Source: a virus (Duplodnaviria; Caudoviricetes). From it: 53,461 bases of DNA. Within the stretch, counting starts at the first letter, position 1, and every line of letters starts with the position of its first letter. Below, one piece after another: positions 2,098 to 32,006 of this stretch. Both the position numbers and the translations under genes were made by a program. The notes under the pieces are model-generated. The model did not search any database, was not told the origin of the DNA, and saw only the letters and a list, made by a program, of their open reading frames with translations. Where the stretch lies: the IMG/VR virus record IMGVR_UViG_3300048599_000841, positions 1 through 53,461 of that record, one strand, 5' to 3'.

Positions 2098-3803
2098 CAG
2101 GCCTCCTCTCCCCGGAACCAGGCGACAGACCTGCCCTTGCCGGTCACGCGGTTGACGTCGACGTTGCCGGAGATGCCCGCCACCTTGCCCCGGCTGGCGT
2201 ACTGGTGGAGGTCGCAGGAGTAGGCTGGTTCCTTCTCCGGCACGCCGGAATTGGAACCATACCGGGGAATCCAGACGAACTCCACTTCGGCCGTGTCCAG
2301 GTTGTACTGCTTGAAGCGGTGGCGTGCGATGTAGAGGCCCACTTTCTTCACGCCCAGCCGCTTAAGCTCCGCCACGAACGCGGACACCAGCGCGCGGACG
2401 TTTGGCTCATCCCCGCCGTAGGATTCCACATCGGCGACATAGTAGAGCGCGGGGCTATCCTTGCAGAGGGAGTACAGGAGCCGCGCCTCGGCCTTCGCTT
2501 CCTCCACCGTCTTCCCTTTCATGTAGTGGTAGACGCCGAAGGGCACACTGTTTTTCACGCACCCGGCGACGTTCCGGGCAATCTTCGCATCCGCATGCAC
2601 GCCCACACTGCCCCGGAGGATCGCGAAGTCGATCGCGTTGGCCGTCAGCGCCCAGTCGATGTTCTCCTGGTACTGGCTCACATCGATGGCGAGGCCCTTG
2701 TACTGCCCGGCGGCAGGCGCCTCGATCAGCTCGGCGTACTTGCCGCTGACCCAGGCGGGCTGATCCTTAACAAGCACGCGGTGCCAGCCGTTCCGGGACT
2801 CACCCTCATAGGGCAGTGTCCGGCCCTTCTTCAAAACCTGGAGCACGCTGTTACTGGTGGAAGGCCCGGTCCGCACGTTGACGTTGCCGGTCGCCAGGAC
2901 GAGCATCGGCCGATCGGTCCCACCGTCGTCGCTGGGCGTCTCTTCTTCATCACCGTCGGTTTCGGAGCCGCTGCCGTCGGGCGGGCTGTCGTCGTCCAGG
3001 GCGCCGGAATCCGGGAGCCCGTTCGTAAGCGCTACCTTCAGCGCCTCATACTCCTCCTCGCCGAATACGCCGTCCGCCGCAAGACCGACCCGCTGCTGGA
3101 ATGCCGTCACAGCGGCCTGGGTCGTCAGGCCGAACTCGCCGTCGACGCCGTCCTTTCCGTCGCCGAAGGAGCCCAGTTCAAAGCCCAGCGTTTTCAGCGC
3201 CCGCTGAAGCTCGATAACGTCCGCGCCCGCACAGCCCTTCGAAAGCTCCCGGTCGCCCAGTTCGCGGGCCTCTTCCGATGCGCTTCCGCTCACGTACCGG
3301 AGGAAGGGCAGCCTAGCCCAATCCGTCCAGCCGCGAGAGGCGATCCTGGTCCGAACCACATCGCTGGAAAAGCCCTGCGCCTCGATGGCATACCCGCCAC
3401 CGATCGTCACGCCCACGTGGCCCTTCTTGTGTAGAAGCAGGCCGGGGACGTCGGGCAGAGCGGCTATCCCGCCGTTCTCGCAGCCCTTTTTCTTGCAGTA
3501 GGCGAATAGTCCGTCGGCGCTGAGGTCAGGACAGCCGTTCGAGGCGTAGACCGGCTCGCGCTCCCCGGCGTTCGACCACGCCGCACCCTTGATCAGCCCC
3601 ACGCAATCGACGGCAAACCGCCCCCCTGCGATGTCCTTCCGGTATCCGGAGGCCCTGGAGGCGGTGTAGTGCGCGGGATACTGTGCCTTCTTTCGCTTGT
3701 AAAGCGATTCGGTGCACTTGAGCCCGTACGTGCCGTACCAGTACACCCAGCCTTCCCGCCAGGCATTCAGCGCGTATTCCACCAGTTGAAGGTTGGTCAG
3801 CAT
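2097..3803 (-). CDS. Modular endolysin: NlpC/P60-CHAP-like peptidase + peptidoglycan-binding domain + SH3b + GH25 muramidase
   Basis: VDCVGLIKG and GHVGV (Cys/His peptidase); GADVIELQRAL...DGEFG..T..AV.AFQ...GL.ADG (PG-binding 1); GNVNVRTGPST...GW..V......WVSGKY (SH3b); IDVSQYQENIDW...DVE...HQY...G.V.GI.GNVDVN (GH25); RBS AAAGGAG. Confidence 0.9.
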   Translation of the reverse strand: MLTNLQLVEYALNAWREGWVYWYGTYGLKCTESLYKRKKAQYPAHYTASRASGYRKDIAGGRFAVDCVGLIKGAAWSNAGEREPVYASNGCPDLSADGLFAYCKKKGCENGGIAALPDVPGLLLHKKGHVGVTIGGGYAIEAQGFSSDVVRTRIASRGWTDWARLPFLRYVSGSASEEARELGDRELSKGCAGADVIELQRALKTLGFELGSFGDGKDGVDGEFGLTTQAAVTAFQQRVGLAADGVFGEEEYEALKVALTNGLPDSGALDDDSPPDGSGSETDGDEEETPSDDGGTDRPMLVLATGNVNVRTGPSTSNSVLQVLKKGRTLPYEGESRNGWHRVLVKDQPAWVSGKYAELIEAPAAGQYKGLAIDVSQYQENIDWALTANAIDFAILRGSVGVHADAKIARNVAGCVKNSVPFGVYHYMKGKTVEEAKAEARLLYSLCKDSPALYYVADVESYGGDEPNVRALVSAFVAELKRLGVKKVGLYIARHRFKQYNLDTAEVEFVWIPRYGSNSGVPEKEPAYSCDLHQYASRGKVAGISGNVDVNRVTGKGRSVAWFRGEEA

Positions 3804-3822
3804 CTGTAGCTCCTTTCAAAGT

Positions 3823-25971: not shown

Positions 25972-27231
25972 TTACACCCCGGCAGGTGAGGCTGCGATCG
26001 CTTCTTCATAGGACAGTACCTCGCCTCCGCGCAGCACCTTCACCCCAGTAGCCGCGCCGGACTGGTCGACGTACCGAAGCACAATGACCGAAGCGTACTT
26101 GGGGTCCAACTCCATCATATAACAGATGCGGTCCAACTGCTCGCAGGCGATGAGCGTACTGCCCGAACCGCCGAAGGGATCGAGCACAATGCCGTTGGGC
26201 GCGGAGCTGTTCCGGATCGGATATGCCAGAAGTGGAACCGGCTTCATCGTCGGGTGCTGGTCGCTGCGCTTGGGCTTGTCGAAGTTCCAGATGGTGGACT
26301 GCTTGCGGTCGGTGAACCATTTGTGTTTCCCGTTGGGGAGCCATCCGAACAGCACCGGCTCGTGCTGCCACTGGTAGGGGCTTCGACCCAGCACCAGCGA
26401 CTGCTTCACCCAGATGCACACGCCGCTGATGTGAAAGCCCGCGTCCTTGAACGCGCGCCGGAAGTTGAGCCCCTCTGTGTCCGCGTGGAAGACGTAGGCT
26501 GAGGCACCCTCGGCCATGTGCGCGGCCATGTTTCTGAAGGCGGCCAGCAGGAACTCATAGAACGCACCGTCCGCCATGCTGTCGTTCAAAATTGACTTGC
26601 CATCCGCGCTTTGGTATGCAACATTGTACGGGGGATCGGTCACAACGAGGTTCGCCTTGACGCCGTCCATGAGCAGCGAGACATGATCCACATCGGTTGC
26701 GTCGCCACAGACCATGCGATGCCTACCCAGTGTCCAGACGTCGCCCGATTGCACGAAGGAGGTTACGCTCTCCGCATCCAGGTCGCAGTCGTCGTCCTTG
26801 ACTTCCTTGTCGTGGATCTTCGAAAAAAGGTCGTCGATCTCCGTAGCGTCGAAGCCCGTCGCCCCCAGGTCATAGCCGTTCTTCTGCAGGTCGGTCAGGA
26901 GGTCCGCCAGCGCCACAGGCTCCCACTCGCCGACTGCCTTGTTGAGCGCGATGTTGAGCGCCTTCTCATCCGCTGCGTTCTCGATGTGCACCACGACGCA
27001 GTCGATCTCGGTGGCGCCTTCCGCCACCAGGACCTTGTACCGCTGGTGACCACCCACGATGTTGCCCGTCACCTCGTTCCAGATCACCGGATCGACATAT
27101 CCGAAGTCGTGAAGCGACCGTTTGATTATCTCATACGCCGGATCGCCGGGCTTCAGGTCCTTACGAGGATTGTATTTTGCGGGCTTCAGCTTCTCCACCG
27201 AAATTCGCTGAAGATTCATGCTTGTGTTCAC
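25972..27231 (-). CDS. ParB-N-fused N6A/N4C DNA methyltransferase
   Basis: ParB-like YNPRK...IVGGHQR; catalytic TDPPYN; HPTMKP; SAM-binding DPFGGSGSTL; GTG start after GGAGGTG. Confidence 0.93.
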   Translation of the reverse strand: MNTSMNLQRISVEKLKPAKYNPRKDLKPGDPAYEIIKRSLHDFGYVDPVIWNEVTGNIVGGHQRYKVLVAEGATEIDCVVVHIENAADEKALNIALNKAVGEWEPVALADLLTDLQKNGYDLGATGFDATEIDDLFSKIHDKEVKDDDCDLDAESVTSFVQSGDVWTLGRHRMVCGDATDVDHVSLLMDGVKANLVVTDPPYNVAYQSADGKSILNDSMADGAFYEFLLAAFRNMAAHMAEGASAYVFHADTEGLNFRRAFKDAGFHISGVCIWVKQSLVLGRSPYQWQHEPVLFGWLPNGKHKWFTDRKQSTIWNFDKPKRSDQHPTMKPVPLLAYPIRNSSAPNGIVLDPFGGSGSTLIACEQLDRICYMMELDPKYASVIVLRYVDQSGAATGVKVLRGGEVLSYEEAIAASPAGV

Positions 27232-27299
27232 GGCGCACCTCCACATTTTTTTCGATATTCGAAAGGCCGCCCATATTGAGCGGCCCGATTTTCGTTTTG

Positions 27300-27398
27300 G
27301 GGCGGAAACCCCACCCCCCGAATATCGCGAAAACTCACGCGAGAGGGGGCCGCGGTCTCCGGCGAGAGCTCCGCAGAGATTCGATCCCCCCTCCCCGG
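27300..27398 (-). other. Putative cos / packaging-initiation region
   Basis: Minus strand GGGGAGGGGGGATCGAATCTCTG...GAGACCGCGGCCCCCTCTCGCGTGAGTTTTCGCGATATT resembles, from recall, the non-coding motif upstream of packaging operons in P27-TerS/HNH siphoviruses; not verified. Confidence 0.5.
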
Positions 27399-27401
27399 CA
27401 C

Positions 27402-27677
27402 ACTTCTCCGAAGCGGAGCGCAAAAGTCCACCGCGCCGGTCGGACTTCTCCGAAGCGGAGCGTGAAAGCCCACCAGGCCTGTGGGACTTCTCCGAAGCGG
27501 AGTGCGAAAGTCCACCAGGCTCGTGGGACTTCTCCGAAGCGGAGCGCGAAAGTCCACCACGCCGGTCGGACTTCTCCGAAGCGGAGCGCGAAAGTCCACC
27601 ACGCCCGTGGGACTTCTCCGAAGCGGAGTGCGAAAGCCCAGCGCGCCGGTCGGACTTCTCCGAAGCGAAGCGCGAAA
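27402..27677. repeat. Tandem array of seven 42-bp units (last one partial) with internal palindromes
   Basis: Units start at 27402, 27444, 27486, 27528, 27570, 27612 and 27654; consensus ACTTCTCCGAAGCGGAGCGCGAAAGTCCACCACGCCGGTCGG. Confidence 0.95.
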
Positions 27678-27862
27678 CTGTGCGCGCGGGCGGGTGGACG
27701 GCGGCGCGGCGGGAGGCGCCTTTGCGGCGCGCGGGCGGGGCACACGGGCGTGGCGGCGGGCCGCGCGGGTGTTCCTTCCTACCACGCGCGTTCGCGCGTA
27801 CGGGCGGCGAGCGCGGCGTGTCGGCGTATCGCAAACGACGCAAAAACAACGGTGTTTGTTAT

Positions 27863-28280: not shown

Positions 28281-28343
28281 CCTGCCCGACGAGGCCTGGC
28301 GGCTCCGGGCCGAAACCGTCGCAAGGCGGTCGCGGGAGAGCCG
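28281..28343 (+). ncRNA. Type I hammerhead ribozyme A (variant core CCGACGA)
   Basis: Stem I CCUGC/GCGGG; core CCGACGA; stem II GGCCUGG-cggcu-CCGGGCC; GAAA; stem III ACCGUC-gcaa-GGCGGU; GUC site, predicted cut after 28331; loop II CGGCU complementary to AGCCG at 28339-28343. Confidence 0.8.
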
Positions 28344-28369
28344 CAACCCACGGAAGGGAGTGTGTCTCC

Positions 28370-29254
28370 ATGAAGGACCAGACCTTTGGCATCGAGATCG
28401 AGATGAACCACATCTCTCGCGCCAAGGCCGCCCAGATCATCGCCGCCCACTTCGGCACATCGATCGAGTACGTCGGCGGCACCTACGACACCCGGTGTGT
28501 GCCCGACGGGCAAGGCCGGAAGTGGAAGGTGGTCTCCGACGCCAGCATCGCCGGGCCCGCCGACGAACGCACCGAGTTTGTCAGCCCGGTGTGCCGGTGG
28601 GAGGACATCGAAACGGTTCAGGAGTTGGTGCGCAAGCTCCGCAAGGCGGGCGCGAAACCCGATCCCAGCTGCGGCATCCACGTCCACATCGGGCGCGGGC
28701 GGCACACTCCGAAAACCTTGCGGAACCTGGTCAACCTGGTCAACGCCAAGGAGGACCTGCTCACGATGGCTCTCCAAATCTCGCCCGAGCGCCGCGACCG
28801 GTGGTGCAAAAAGGTCGACTCCGACTTCCTCGACCGCCTGAACCGGCGCAAGCCGCAAACCGACGCCGCCTTCGCGCAAGCTTGGTACGACACCACCCAG
28901 TGGCAATTCCACGCACAGCAGCACTACGACCCAAGCCGGTACCACCTCTTGAACCTGCACAGCGTGTTTCAAAAGGGCACCATCGAGTTCCGCGCCTTCA
29001 ACGCGACGCTCCACGCGGGCGAGGTCAAGACCTACATCCAGCTTTGCATGGCGATTTCCCACCAAGCTTTGGAATCAAGTTCGGCCTCCACTCGCCCGCC
29101 GCTCACCGACAACCCGAAGTACACCTTCCGGTGCTGGCTACTGCGGCTGGGGTTCATCGGGGACGAGTTCGAGACCGCCCGTCAGCACTTGCTCAAGCAC
29201 CTGCCCGGCAACGCGGCATGGCGGCAGGCGGACTCCGCCAGGCAGGCCAGCTAA
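28370..29254 (+). CDS. Putative amidoligase (Amidoligase_2 family)
   Basis: TFGIEIE, W.VVSD.SI, EFVSP, SCGIHVHIG, RY..LNL and GTIEFR.FN.TL motifs. Confidence 0.92.
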   Translation: MKDQTFGIEIEMNHISRAKAAQIIAAHFGTSIEYVGGTYDTRCVPDGQGRKWKVVSDASIAGPADERTEFVSPVCRWEDIETVQELVRKLRKAGAKPDPSCGIHVHIGRGRHTPKTLRNLVNLVNAKEDLLTMALQISPERRDRWCKKVDSDFLDRLNRRKPQTDAAFAQAWYDTTQWQFHAQQHYDPSRYHLLNLHSVFQKGTIEFRAFNATLHAGEVKTYIQLCMAISHQALESSSASTRPPLTDNPKYTFRCWLLRLGFIGDEFETARQHLLKHLPGNAAWRQADSARQAS

Positions 29255-29322
29255 CATAGCGAGCAACTGACGGCAGCCCCCGCGAGACACACAGCTTCCA
29301 AATCAAGCGCGCCGCGCCGCGC

Positions 29323-29382
29323 TCCCGCCTGATGAGGGCCGGCGGCTCCGGTCCGAAACGTGACACACATCGCGGGAAGCCA
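29323..29382 (+). ncRNA. Type I hammerhead ribozyme B (canonical core)
   Basis: Stem I UCCCGC/GCGGGA; core CUGAUGA; stem II GGGCCGG-cggcu-CCGGUCC; GAAA; short stem III with one C-A mismatch; AUC site, predicted cut after 29371; loop II pairs with downstream AGCC. Confidence 0.8.
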
Positions 29383-29412
29383 CGCAACTTCCAAATCAGA
29401 AGGAGGTACACC

Positions 29413-29559
29413 ATGAAGAAGTTTGCAATCGGAATCCTTATCGGCCTGATCCTCGGTGCGGTGACAGCCGGAACAACGCTCATGTACAACGCACAGGTCA
29501 GGGGCACCGACAACGGCTACACCATCACGGTCTTTGGTCAGGACTTTGAATACAGGTGA
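29413..29559 (+). CDS. 48-aa small membrane or secreted protein
   Basis: RBS AAGGAGGT; MKKFAIGILIGLILGAVTAG hydrophobic N-terminus. Confidence 0.75.
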   Translation: MKKFAIGILIGLILGAVTAGTTLMYNAQVRGTDNGYTITVFGQDFEYR

Positions 29560-29625
29560 CGCTCGCCCGACGAGCGCCGGGTCGCTCCCAACCGAAACGC
29601 TCCGAAATCAAGGAGCGTCGCGGCG
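29560..29625 (+). ncRNA. Hammerhead-like copy C (stem II damaged)
   Basis: CCGACGA core at 29567-29573; GAAAC; perfect stem III ACGCUCC/GGAGCGU; GUC at 29617-29619; stem II 3' strand is CCCAAC where copy E has CCCGGC. Confidence 0.65.
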
Positions 29626-29678
29626 GGGGCAGACCTTCCGCAAGCGGAAGCTTCCGAATCAAATGCAGGAGGTTCACC

Positions 29679-30062
29679 ATGAATTTCTTCGAACAGCAGC
29701 TTCGCGGCCTTACCGGCAAGACCACCGCTTTCAAATCAGCCAGCCCGGTCTTCATCGGCAGAGCCTGCTTCCTCACACTGAGCGAAGGCCGCAGGGCGCG
29801 GTTGGAGTTCATCACCCTCGGCACGGCCGACCAATACGAAGCCCTGCAGGTCAGCGTCATCAACCTGAACGACGGTAAAATCGACTGCATCCAGTTGCGC
29901 TTTTCCGATTACTTCGCGCCCAAGCGGACAGTTAGCGGCGATGCGCGCGCGCCTCACATCTGGGTGTACCAAGGCAAAGCCGAGTGGTACGGCGAACCGG
30001 CCGAAACCGAGAAGGCCGCGCTTTCAAAAGCTGCCAGCGACTACGTCAAGCTCTTCGCCTAA
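29679..30062 (+). CDS. Hypothetical protein (127 aa)
   Basis: RBS AGGAGG; MNFFEQQL start. Confidence 0.8.
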   Translation: MNFFEQQLRGLTGKTTAFKSASPVFIGRACFLTLSEGRRARLEFITLGTADQYEALQVSVINLNDGKIDCIQLRFSDYFAPKRTVSGDARAPHIWVYQGKAEWYGEPAETEKAALSKAASDYVKLFA

Positions 30063-30090
30063 CGCTTTCAAATCAAGAGGAGGATTTCTC

Positions 30091-30420
30091 ATGAAACGGC
30101 AATTCGCGGTTCGTCTACTCGTAAATGCCTACGCCACTGTAGAAGCCGACACACCCGAAGAGGCTGCGGAGCTCGCTCGATCTCTGAACTTGAGCACCTG
30201 CGCCTTCGACGACTACATCGACTCGTCGGATGTCACGGTGGGCGATGAACTCACACCCGCCAAACGCGCCGGGCCGCGCCTTGCCGAAACGCTCCTGAAT
30301 CAAGGGGCGTCGCGGGAAGCTGAAACGCTGGCGAAAGCATCCAGATCAATCAAAGGAGGCACACCCCATGAACGATCAAGCGAGACAGGAGCTTCGGGAG
30401 CATCTGGCCATCCTGCGTAA
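30091..30420 (+). CDS. Hypothetical protein (VEADTPEEA.ELA motif), probably C-terminally extended by loss of a stop at 30262
   Basis: RBS GAGGAGG; reads through hammerhead-like copy D and overlaps the next gene. Confidence 0.65.
   Translation: MKRQFAVRLLVNAYATVEADTPEEAAELARSLNLSTCAFDDYIDSSDVTVGDELTPAKRAGPRLAETLLNQGASREAETLAKASRSIKGGTPHERSSETGASGASGHPA
30256..30316 (+). ncRNA. Degenerate hammerhead-like copy D
   Basis: Stem I CCCGC/GCGGG, GAAAC, stem III and GUC (30309-30311) retained; core is CAAACGC and stem II is weakened. Confidence 0.55.
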
Positions 30421-30622
30421 AAGCCCCGTCAACTACCGCACGTATCTCATCGAAATGGGCATCGTCACCGGCATGCTCGCCGCCGTCAACGCGCTCACCG
30501 GCAGCGCCTGGACGCTGGTGGAATCGGAATGCCTGCAGGAGCATTACGCCCACAACGAGGCGACCGGCGAACACATCGCGGCCACCAAATGGCTTGAGGA
30601 TCAAGGAGGCGAACGCAAATGA
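30368..30622 (+). CDS. Hypothetical protein (84 aa)
   Basis: RBS AAAGGAGG. Confidence 0.75.
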   Translation: MNDQARQELREHLAILRKSPVNYRTYLIEMGIVTGMLAAVNALTGSAWTLVESECLQEHYAHNEATGEHIAATKWLEDQGGERK

Positions 30623-30822
30623 AGATCACGACCCTTTCCCAATGCATGGACATTCTCGACTGGTTCGACGACCCGCTCTACGAGTACCTGAATCATATCC
30701 TGCTCTCCAAGCTGGACGGTGAAGCGCGCGTCACACGGGCGCTGCCCGACATCATCGGCCACGCGGAGGCGCTGGTGCGCAGCACGCGGGCACAGAGGCC
30801 GCGTACCCCGTCGAACTCCTGA
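30619..30822 (+). CDS. Hypothetical protein (67 aa)
   Basis: RBS AAGGAGG; ATGA coupling with the upstream gene. Confidence 0.75.
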   Translation: MKITTLSQCMDILDWFDDPLYEYLNHILLSKLDGEARVTRALPDIIGHAEALVRSTRAQRPRTPSNS

Positions 30823-30826
30823 ATCA

Positions 30827-30888
30827 GCCCGCCAAACGCGCCGGGTCGCTCCCGGCCGAAACGCTCCGAAATCAAGGAGCGTCGCGGC
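30827..30888 (+). ncRNA. Degenerate hammerhead-like copy E
   Basis: Stem II GCCGGG-ucgcu-CCCGGC, GAAAC, perfect stem III, GUC at 30881-30883; core is CAAACGC; near-duplicate of copy C and its downstream hairpin. Confidence 0.6.
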
Positions 30889-30944
30889 GGGGGTGGACCT
30901 TCCGCAAGCGGAAGCTTTCAAATCAACCAAAGGAGGCAAGGCCT

Positions 30945-31184
30945 ATGCAAATCACGCAGGCGCCCATCCAGACCAAATCGCTGAAGGACGCACTCACTAA
31001 GGCGACGCACCTCGGCTTCAGCCAGGCGGAAACCGCTATCGGCACCCATCGGCCCATCGACGAATGGCTGAAGGAGCTTTCCGAATCAGGTGGCGGCTGC
31101 GGTGGCTACGCCCTTTTCGGTAGCGTCATCGTCCGCATCCGGGACGTATGGCAGCGGGACGCCGAGGTTGTCCACCCTGACTGA
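30945..31184 (+). CDS. Hypothetical protein (79 aa)
   Basis: RBS AAAGGAGG. Confidence 0.7.
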   Translation: MQITQAPIQTKSLKDALTKATHLGFSQAETAIGTHRPIDEWLKELSESGGGCGGYALFGSVIVRIRDVWQRDAEVVHPD

Positions 31185-31219
31185 TCCGCAGCTTTGAAAT
31201 CAAGGCGAGGAGGCACACC

Positions 31220-31405
31220 ATGAAAAAGGTCTTTTCTCTGGAGGGCGAGCGGATCACCCTCAAACGCGCCAAGGAGCTTCTTGGGGAAAAGCGCTACAAG
31301 AGGTTCGTCGGTCTCTCCAAGGCCATCTTCCTTACAGATCCGGTCGCGGAATACCGCTGCGCGACCAACGAAGGCATCCTGACCGTCTACTTCCGCATTG
31401 ATTGA
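31220..31405 (+). CDS. Hypothetical basic protein (61 aa)
   Basis: RBS GAGGAGG. Confidence 0.7.
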   Translation: MKKVFSLEGERITLKRAKELLGEKRYKRFVGLSKAIFLTDPVAEYRCATNEGILTVYFRID

Positions 31406-31449
31406 TGCCCACGCAACATTTACACTTTGAAATCAAGGAGGAACCCCCT

Positions 31450-31914
31450 ATGAAATACATCGCCTACGGCTCCAACATGAGCACCGGGCAAATGGAATAC
31501 CGCTGCCCGGATGCCAGGCTCGTCGATGTCGGCCGCATCCATGGCGCGCAGCTGGAGTTCTTCATCCATGCCACCGTAGAACTCTCCCAAATCAAGGACG
31601 CCTTCGTGCCCGTCGCGGTCTGGGAAATCTCCGAACGGGATGAGAAGCGTTTGGACAGGTACGAGGGCTTCCCCAACTACTACATTAAGGAGGAGTGGCC
31701 GGTCACCCTGGCGGATGGCTCTGACATCACCGGCATGATCTACCTCATGCGCACAAAGCGGGGCGATGTACCCGCCATGGGATACTACGAGGGCATCCGC
31801 TCCGCCTACGAGGATTTGGGGCTGCGTTCCGAAATCAAGTCGGCGCTGGAGTCCGCGCTGCGCAGGTCAATGTACCGACGGTTCCGGCTCGCAACCGGCC
31901 GCCGTGCCAAATGA
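31450..31914 (+). CDS. Gamma-glutamylcyclotransferase family protein
   Basis: Y.AYGSNM...QM..RCP and DE..LDRYEG.P..Y motifs; RBS AAGGAGG. Confidence 0.92.
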   Translation: MKYIAYGSNMSTGQMEYRCPDARLVDVGRIHGAQLEFFIHATVELSQIKDAFVPVAVWEISERDEKRLDRYEGFPNYYIKEEWPVTLADGSDITGMIYLMRTKRGDVPAMGYYEGIRSAYEDLGLRSEIKSALESALRRSMYRRFRLATGRRAK

Positions 31915-31934
31915 AAGAGCCGCTCAAGCAAGAA

Positions 31935-31956
31935 GCCGCCCTCGCAAAAGGGCGGC
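31935..31956. terminator. Hairpin between convergent genes, likely a bidirectional terminator
   Basis: GCCGCCCT-CGCAAA-AGGGCGGC with T-rich flanks on both strands. Confidence 0.6.
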
Positions 31957-32006
31957 CAGGATTTTCAGTTGCCTGAATTGGCCAAATAGAGTGATAACTT
32001 GTAGTG

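Follow-up and report, generated by a model that had tools for sequence, protein, structure and literature searches.

Type I hammerhead ribozymes between the genes of an amidoligase operon in a gut provirus, and their likely role in separating its messages

What is the use of several copies of one self-cutting RNA motif placed between the genes of a single phage operon? The question is raised by the virus record IMGVR_UViG_3300048599_000841 (Duplodnaviria; Caudoviricetes), which we analyzed over its whole length of 53,461 nucleotides (nt) and call the window. This stretch is an entire provirus, from a gut phage of Christensenellales/Clostridia. The provirus class is assigned to the record, and its amidoligase DNA matches gut phages with Christensenellales hosts, filed under Ca. 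Heliusvirales; the main text of the Heliusvirales paper has no mention of hammerhead, ribozyme, or amidoligase. On the plus strand, at about 27.9–31.9 kilobases (kb), lies an accessory operon of small open reading frames (ORFs), the amidoligase gene, six or seven small genes, and a gamma-glutamyl cyclotransferase gene. Hammerhead copies, which we name A to E in their order along the strand, lie between its cistrons. The most likely role of these copies, to which we give a probability of roughly 0.6, is that the polycistronic phage transcript is self-cleaved into separate linear mRNAs.

How firmly can these elements be called hammerheads? We used a descriptor with the core C[CU]GANGA, GAAA, U followed by any base but G, three helices, and at most one mismatch. 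On both strands of the window it matched only A and B; 100 dinucleotide shuffles gave a mean of 0.01 matches, and one shuffle of the 100 had any. Evidence from the single sequence is thin, and so the case rests on the relatives. A protein-guided search brought together 51 IMG/VR loci and 80 bacterial-genome loci, mostly metagenome-assembled genomes (MAGs) of Christensenellales and other Clostridia, and a covariance model, R1, was built from an alignment of 62 distinct copies. Within the window R1 recovered five copies, each of them on the plus strand and in a gap between genes. When the IMG/VR loci are taken together with the window (322 kb), every copy found (91/91) lies on the amidoligase strand, and the same is true of the bacterial-genome prophages (128/128 copies; 80 loci, 388 kb). 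A fixed-pattern scan of IMG/VR added at least 111 further stretches, and R1 confirms 115 copies in 80 loci among the matches listed. That set fixes stem I and CUGAYGA, and it is left out of the frequencies of stem I and of the C4 core given below.

The relatives also change in concert. Over 77 distinct rows the paired cells amount to 92.6%, against 75.3% in shuffles (0 of 500 reach the observed value) and 25.8–44.2% with slid partners, and compensatory changes on both sides occur in 13 of 18 pairs; the alignment behind these counts was fitted to R1, which leans them toward the model. The pseudoknot between loop II and the tail covaries as well, with the flavours GGC:GCC (104 of the 157 classified sequences), GCGG:CCGC, GGU:ACC, and GGG:CCC, in counts that include the fixed-pattern set with its bias for stem I and C4. 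In nearly all relative loci the amidoligase stop codon is followed by a type I hammerhead built in the same way (at most 250 nt after it in 32 of the 40 loci with enough flank), and further copies come after the next genes. As judged from sequence, the membership of A and B in a real, covarying type I hammerhead family is secure.

For the conserved positions we use the numbering C3 U4 G5 A6 N7 G8 A9, G12 A13 A14, A15.1–U16.1, and H17 (not G), which agrees with the text of Perreault et al. 2011 (PLoS Comput Biol, PMC3088659). In copy A the 5′ strand of stem I, CCUGC (28281–28285), is followed by the core CCGACGA (28286–28292), in which C replaces U at position 4. Then come a stem II of 7 base pairs (bp), GGCCUGG/CCGGGCC, with the loop CGGCU, the GAAA at 28312–28315, and a 5-bp stem III, CCGUC/GGCGG, with a GCAA loop, ending in U28330 and C28331. 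On the 3′ side of the predicted cleavage site stand GCGGGA (28332–28337) and AGCCG (28339–28343), and the tail GCGGGAGAGCCG pairs with loop II. The minimum free energy fold of A is the expected three-way junction.

Copy B has the stem I strand UCCCGC (29323–29328), the core CUGAUGA (29329–29335), a 7-bp stem II, GGGCCGG/CCGGUCC, again with the loop CGGCU, and GAAA at 29355–29358. Its stem III is weak, being formed by GUG-ACA-CAC plus an A:U pair and one C.A mismatch before U29370 and C29371; at the mismatch B has an A where the related locus L003 has the G that completes the pair. GCGGGA and then AGCCA follow the predicted site. The minimum free energy fold of B is without stem III. A and B are 83% identical over 36 nt, and their loop II–tail pseudoknots have 5 and 4 bp, respectively. 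In these two copies the core features required of type I (a CUGANGA-type core, GAAA, and U followed by an H17 that is not G) are all present in B, and in A all but position 4.

The other three copies are of a different quality. C has the core CCGACGA (C4), three non-pairs in stem II, and a stem I of 4 bp plus a bulge; the GGC/GCC pseudoknot is missing, and the minimum free energy fold is not a hammerhead. In D and E the core itself is destroyed (Table 1). C and E form a 99-nt repeat of 90% identity, and their variant tail had 0 matches in the IMG/VR scan and so is not a conserved subclass. To judge from their cores and stems, C, D, and E are decayed copies, and only A and B, at most two of the five, look able to cut. 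The earlier note on this DNA had also suggested a 248-nt unit from B to C (29372–29619) carrying the 48-amino-acid gene. The arithmetic of this unit is right, but its release is unlikely, since C looks inactive. We also observed an ORF at 30091–30420, with a good ribosome-binding site, which runs through the dead copy D and overlaps the start of the next gene by 53 nt; it may be a relic turned coding, or a gene whose stop was lost.

Table 1. Positions of the hammerhead copies, genes, and motifs discussed in the text, in window coordinates.
Feature	Position	Strand	Remarks
Hammerhead copy A, type I; predicted cleavage after C28331	28278..28348	+	R1 58.1 bits, E 1.3e-11
Predicted released RNA, 1040 nt	28332..29371	+	Leader, ribosome-binding site, amidoligase ORF, and hammerhead B as 3′ end; release would require both cuts
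Amidoligase gene, 294 amino acids	28370..29254	+	PF12224 Amidoligase_2, E 6.4e-65
CTTCCAAATCA motif upstream of hammerhead B	29295..29305	+	One of cluster 29295-31584
Hammerhead copy B, type I, canonical core; predicted cleavage after C29371	29321..29388	+	R1 60.1 bits, E 4.5e-12
CTTCCAAATCA motif between B cleavage site and ribosome-binding site of the 48-amino-acid gene	29388..29398	+	Repeat family D6
Small gene, 48 amino acids, hydrophobic N-terminus, AAGGAGG ribosome-binding site	29413..29559	+	
Hammerhead copy C, degenerate; nominal cleavage after C29619	29559..29638	+	R1 34.4 bits
Hammerhead-derived copy D; destroyed core CAAACG replacing CUGANGA	30253..30328	+	R1 39.6 bits
Hammerhead-derived copy E; destroyed core CAAACG	30825..30901	+	R1 34.3 bits; repeat families D1 and D2
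Gamma-glutamyl cyclotransferase-like gene, last of the operon	31450..31914	+	phrog_2520, E 1.5e-29

If A and B cut, what would become of the transcript? The proposed mechanism starts from the five copies of one type I family that would punctuate the intergenic gaps of the operon RNA. A and B are on the coding strand, and so a double cleavage would release the amidoligase cistron; if these two alone cut, the amidoligase message would leave as a linear RNA of 1040 nt. This unit contains GGAAGGGAG, the ATG at 28370, and the ORF through 29254. At each site the ribozyme body (5′ strand of stem I, core, and stems II and III) would stay on the 3′ end of the upstream cistron, and the upstream piece would thereby end in a folded hammerhead with a 2′,3′-cyclic phosphate. 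The downstream mRNA would begin with 5′-OH-GCGGGA(A)GCC, able to pair with stem I and, by the pseudoknot, with loop II, and would start 39–62 nt ahead of its start codon. Adjoining genes could then differ in stability and translation. [quoted passage not shown] It is also reported there that the predicted fragments were obtained in vitro from three tandem arrangements (one of them of the gut firmicute Clostridium scindens), and that A. tumefaciens hammerheads cleave in vivo, in E. coli.

Several points weigh against this explanation. Cleavage by the window's own hammerheads is a prediction, and both candidates deviate from the consensus, A at a conserved core position (U4C) and B by the mismatch in stem III. 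Their R1 scores of 58–60 bits stand near the low end of the 47–81 bit range of the other intact full-length copies. The fold z-scores, −0.86 for A and −0.90 for B, do not reach significance in this GC-rich context, and we do not use them as support. Rfam 15 gave no hammerhead in the window at the gathering score and none at E ≤ 10 in 2.4 kb or 86 nt around B, nor did searches of 86–91 nt at E ≤ 10 give one for the best-scoring relatives. We read this as a sensitivity limit of the Rfam models and, as the defining features are present, do not count it against hammerhead identity; a sub-family missed by Rfam would not be flagged by annotation pipelines. The near-invariant stem I, described below, is not accounted for by cleavage within one ribozyme alone. 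The fate of the products is a further difficulty. RNase J was found in five of five host-clade genomes with related prophages (MAGs), and according to PMC3328962, which summarises Collins et al. 2007, RNase J1 of B. subtilis acts on the 5′-OH end that cleavage by the glmS ribozyme produces. Simple cleavage could destabilise the downstream mRNAs and not free them.

Do A and B still cut at a useful rate? If one or both do not, the copies would be relics, and the genes would be translated from one polycistronic message that stays uncut. In favour of this, all five copies are defective against the consensus (U4C in A, the G-to-A change in stem III of B, several defects in C, and the lost core of D and E), the R1 scores of the window's copies rank near the bottom of the 91 matches, and the record is classed as a provirus. 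A is probably slow owing to U4C, and few members of the family have a C4 core (4 among 91 matches and 4 among 128). However, the hammerhead upstream of the amidoligase is also C4 in L003 (89% identical protein) and in the locus L170 (86%), where stems II and III differ with compensation. These orthologues keep C4 while their stems change in this way, so the U4C variant appears to be maintained, which argues for retained selection. A viroid U4C variant, cited in parts of PMC3088659, has greatly reduced activity in vitro and is nonetheless adequate in vivo, and weak stems III are said there to be common in active hammerheads. B, moreover, has its core, stem I, stem II, and pseudoknot intact. We consider the relic state unlikely, though it survives better than the other alternatives.

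Could the units of about 70 bp act mainly as DNA? They might be dispersed repeats at which related phages exchange gene cassettes by homologous recombination, or selfish insertions, with RNA cleavage as a secondary matter. Such a role is compatible with separation of the mRNAs; as the main explanation we rate it slightly below the relic state. The window and L170 have their gene cassettes in different orders, and hammerheads stand at the cassette boundaries. The 48-amino-acid gene follows hammerhead B in the window and the fourth hammerhead in L170, and a gene of 127 amino acids follows C in the window and the second hammerhead in L170; the reordered stretch covers 29372–30062 of the window and 3431–3816 and 4932–5122 of L170. 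Hammerhead presence is polymorphic too, as the copy that follows the 48-amino-acid gene in the window (C) is absent there in L170. In L052, at about 3382–3420, directly after the amidoligase stop, only the joined halves of stem I are retained, as CCCGC-C-C-GCGGGAAGCC, with the core and stems II and III missing, which looks like a precise deletion of a hammerhead. Stem I and core are near-identical among copies, and stems II and III differ. On the other side, the strict strand bias and the compensatory changes in three helices and the pseudoknot indicate selection on the RNA fold, not on DNA identity alone. Similarity among the repeats themselves prevents an exact, single-base location of the breakpoints, and the provirus is without a reverse transcriptase for an RNA-mediated route.

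The near-constant stem I leads to the question whether the pieces could be joined again at their ends. The earlier note had proposed that the amidoligase cistron is released as a circular mRNA, and its observations on the bases hold. The two hammerheads do bracket a 1040-nt unit, 28332–29371, with the ribosome-binding site and the amidoligase ORF; GCGGGA of A is complementary to UCCCGC of B, giving a 6-bp stem I; and loop CGGCU of B makes 5 bp with AGCCG of A, against 4 bp with its own AGCCA. B shares the stem II length and the loop of A, and so a hybrid hammerhead would have A's own geometry. The pairing supports the view that the ends of the excised RNA could rebuild such a hybrid. The 5′ end would pair with hammerhead B, and closure by the reverse reaction or by host RtcB would give an exonuclease-resistant circular mRNA. 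Type I architecture retains the catalytic body on the cyclic-phosphate end, as parts of PMC3088659 describe, and the RNase J of all five host-clade genomes offers a conceivable motive to hide 5′-OH ends. Nearly all copies share stem I and a matching pseudoknot, so that every excised cistron would have interchangeable ends. There is a slight chance that these ends allow single-gene mRNA circles, or pieces rejoined in new orders. If this were true, circles or rejoined pieces would be shielded from 5′-exonuclease attack by RNase J on 5′-OH ends, and the circle would be without precedent among bacterial viruses as a natural, translatable circular mRNA that small ribozymes produce; our literature searches brought up no natural phage mRNA circularised by a ribozyme.

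How specific is the match between neighbouring ribozymes? We paired each downstream ribozyme with its own product and with the product of its upstream neighbour, using non-duplicate pairs. At each of its pairs stem I follows CCCGC/GCGGG in 71–76 of the 77 distinct rows, and the figures for the 128 genome copies are 109 and 107, in a model-based collection that favours the stem I consensus, such that the true frequency may be somewhat lower. In the IMG/VR neighbour pairs (n = 42) stem I with the neighbour's product was worse than with the own product in 6, equal in 33, and better in 3, and the pseudoknot was shorter in 12, equal in 19, and longer in 11; in the genome-locus pairs (n = 66) stem I was worse in 10, equal in 54, and better in 2. 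In most neighbouring pairs of the relatives, stem I fits the neighbour's product as well as the ribozyme's own. However, the compatibility is generic. Neighbours of the genome set have a mean stem I of 4.82 out of 5 and a pseudoknot of −7.15 kcal/mol, and random copies from other loci have 4.82 and −7.36 kcal/mol; neighbours match each other no better than copies from other loci do.

Compensatory changes in stem I even break the cross pairing. The hammerhead upstream of the amidoligase has CUCGC/GCGAG in L004, L005, L006, L051, and L172, which keeps its own stem I and mismatches the CCCGC of the downstream ribozyme; the broken pairs include those that bracket the amidoligase in L004, L005, and L006. 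Mixed pseudoknot flavours weaken the contact between neighbours as well, as in L026 (−2.2 kcal/mol across neighbours vs −6.0). Bracketing of the amidoligase is itself confined to near relatives of the window, a hammerhead being present at most 500 nt upstream of the gene in 6 of 47 IMG/VR loci. The step in the earlier note from compatible ends to circularisation is thus not borne out.

The means of ligation point in both directions. RtcB was found in two of the five host-clade genomes; it was not found in the other three, which are MAGs and may be incomplete, and in the provirus we found neither RtcB nor a reverse transcriptase (RVT_1). In the assays described in parts of PMC7229834, RtcB circularises 30–80% of type I hammerhead retrozyme monomers in vitro, but self-circularisation by the hammerhead reaches merely 1–3%. 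According to parts of PMC3088659, circular or spliced products were considered and looked for, and none was detected (data not shown there). Two sequencing runs, with 0.05 and 0.04 of sampled words, gave seven short contig pieces at 85% likeness, all within the ORF and from relatives; these pieces, from runs with 4–5% of sampled words, have no joints and no ends, cover neither hammerhead, and are uninformative both ways. With a fit of ends that is common to the whole family and broken at some of the amidoligase loci, a circular amidoligase mRNA is improbable, more so than a DNA-level role.

Is there any other signal that would interrupt the operon, which by the preferred explanation would be transcribed as one RNA and cut into linear mRNAs? 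On the plus strand at 27.4–31.9 kb we found no convincing terminator-like site inside the operon. A terminator-like hairpin at 31934–31957 ends it, facing convergent genes. The promoter and terminator scans gave 4 terminator-like sites where 7.4 were expected, and one promoter-like site, on the minus strand, and we take from them no more than that the operon lacks an obvious interruption. The 48-amino-acid gene has no Pfam or PHROG match. The divergent neighbour of the operon, at 25972–27849 on the minus strand, codes a ParB-like domain fused to a DNA methyltransferase; it matches phrog_498 (E 8.7e-169) and phrog_620 (E 5.2e-40), and the matches begin only at residue 202 of the longest ORF. 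Between this gene and the operon lies a 42-bp tandem repeat (27402–27677, 6.6 copies, 88% match), which is also present in L003, L170, L036, and L176. Its period is a multiple of three, and so one of the strands may be coding there.

A second short element recurs along the operon. The strand-specific motif CTYYNRAAYC (typically CTTCCAAATCAA) is found on the plus strand at, for example, 29295, 29388, 29651, 30065, 30915, and 31192. It stands 2–8 nt upstream of the Shine-Dalgarno sequence of almost every small operon gene, and also in the stem III loops of C, D, and E. The window has 12 matches, against 1.7 expected, and in 1.22 Mb of related loci the hammerhead strand carries 1229 and the opposite strand 64. 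Of 278 hammerheads, 118 have the motif at most 45 nt downstream and 69 have it at most 40 nt upstream. Possible roles of the motif are the enhancement of translation, as an AU-rich element, or the binding of a protein.

What does this locus add? It is a clean further example of a known and still unexplained phage habit, the placing of self-cutting hammerheads between genes. A stem I that is near-fixed beside freely covarying stems II and III asks for more than cleavage as its explanation, and the sub-family also sits at the junctions of cassette reordering between related prophages. The size of the sub-family, its invisibility to Rfam, the near-fixed stem I, and the cassette junctions make it a convenient system in which the function of phage hammerhead arrays (separation of mRNAs, protection of ends, ligation, or recombination) can be tested.

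How do these arrays compare with other systems bounded by ribozymes? Retrozymes, viroids, and satellites, as described in parts of PMC7229834, PMC5680766, and PMC7761336, likewise have hammerheads of the same polarity whose products, with 5′-OH and 2′,3′-cyclic phosphate ends, are able to rebuild the ribozyme, and RtcB-type ligases close hammerhead-bounded retrozyme monomers (PMC7229834). The retrozyme and viroid units of these accounts are non-coding repeats of identical monomers for which circles have been demonstrated. In contrast, the unit of the window is a single-copy, protein-coding cistron in the operon of a double-stranded DNA phage, bounded by two ribozymes that differ. Retrozymes and viroid-like circular RNAs are non-coding tandem or LTR-bounded repeat units mobilised by reverse transcription or RNA replication; here we found a protein gene and no RVT_1 match. 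The glmS ribozyme of B. subtilis (parts of PMC3328962) is likewise a firmicute mRNA ribozyme which leaves a 5′-OH on the downstream coding part. However, glmS is ligand-dependent, serves one gene, and destabilises its message by cleavage, whereas the ribozymes of the window look constitutive and are repeated between many genes.

Two further comparisons are with the hammerheads of PMC3088659. In parts of PMC3088659 pseudoknots are reported in all three hammerhead types and called critical for speed. The window family resembles the type I pseudoknot hammerheads described there in that stem I is open, stems II and III are closed, and a loop makes a covarying Watson-Crick contact with a flanking strand. 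In the window family this contact joins loop II with the strand just 3′ of stem I, and most members have, as modelled, one extra base after A9. The clustered prophage hammerheads of the same source likewise lie as several same-strand copies in successive operon gaps, with varying flanked genes; in the window five plus-strand copies lie in the gene gaps of a provirus, and the relatives show the same. Against that set, the window sub-family is all of type I with the near-fixed stem I CCCGC/GCGGG, is tied to the amidoligase operon of Christensenellales/Clostridia phages, and has, at some loci, as many as six copies in about 4 kb. We observed six family hammerheads within 3–4 kb in the prophages L198, L200, L107, and L078. 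Sequences of this sub-family may already be in the PMC3088659 collection. The array of the window is a further member of the known clustered prophage hammerheads, whose layout has been known since 2011; what is new is the size and host range of the sub-family, its invisibility to Rfam, the near-fixed stem I beside covarying stems II and III, and the reordering of cassettes relative to L170.

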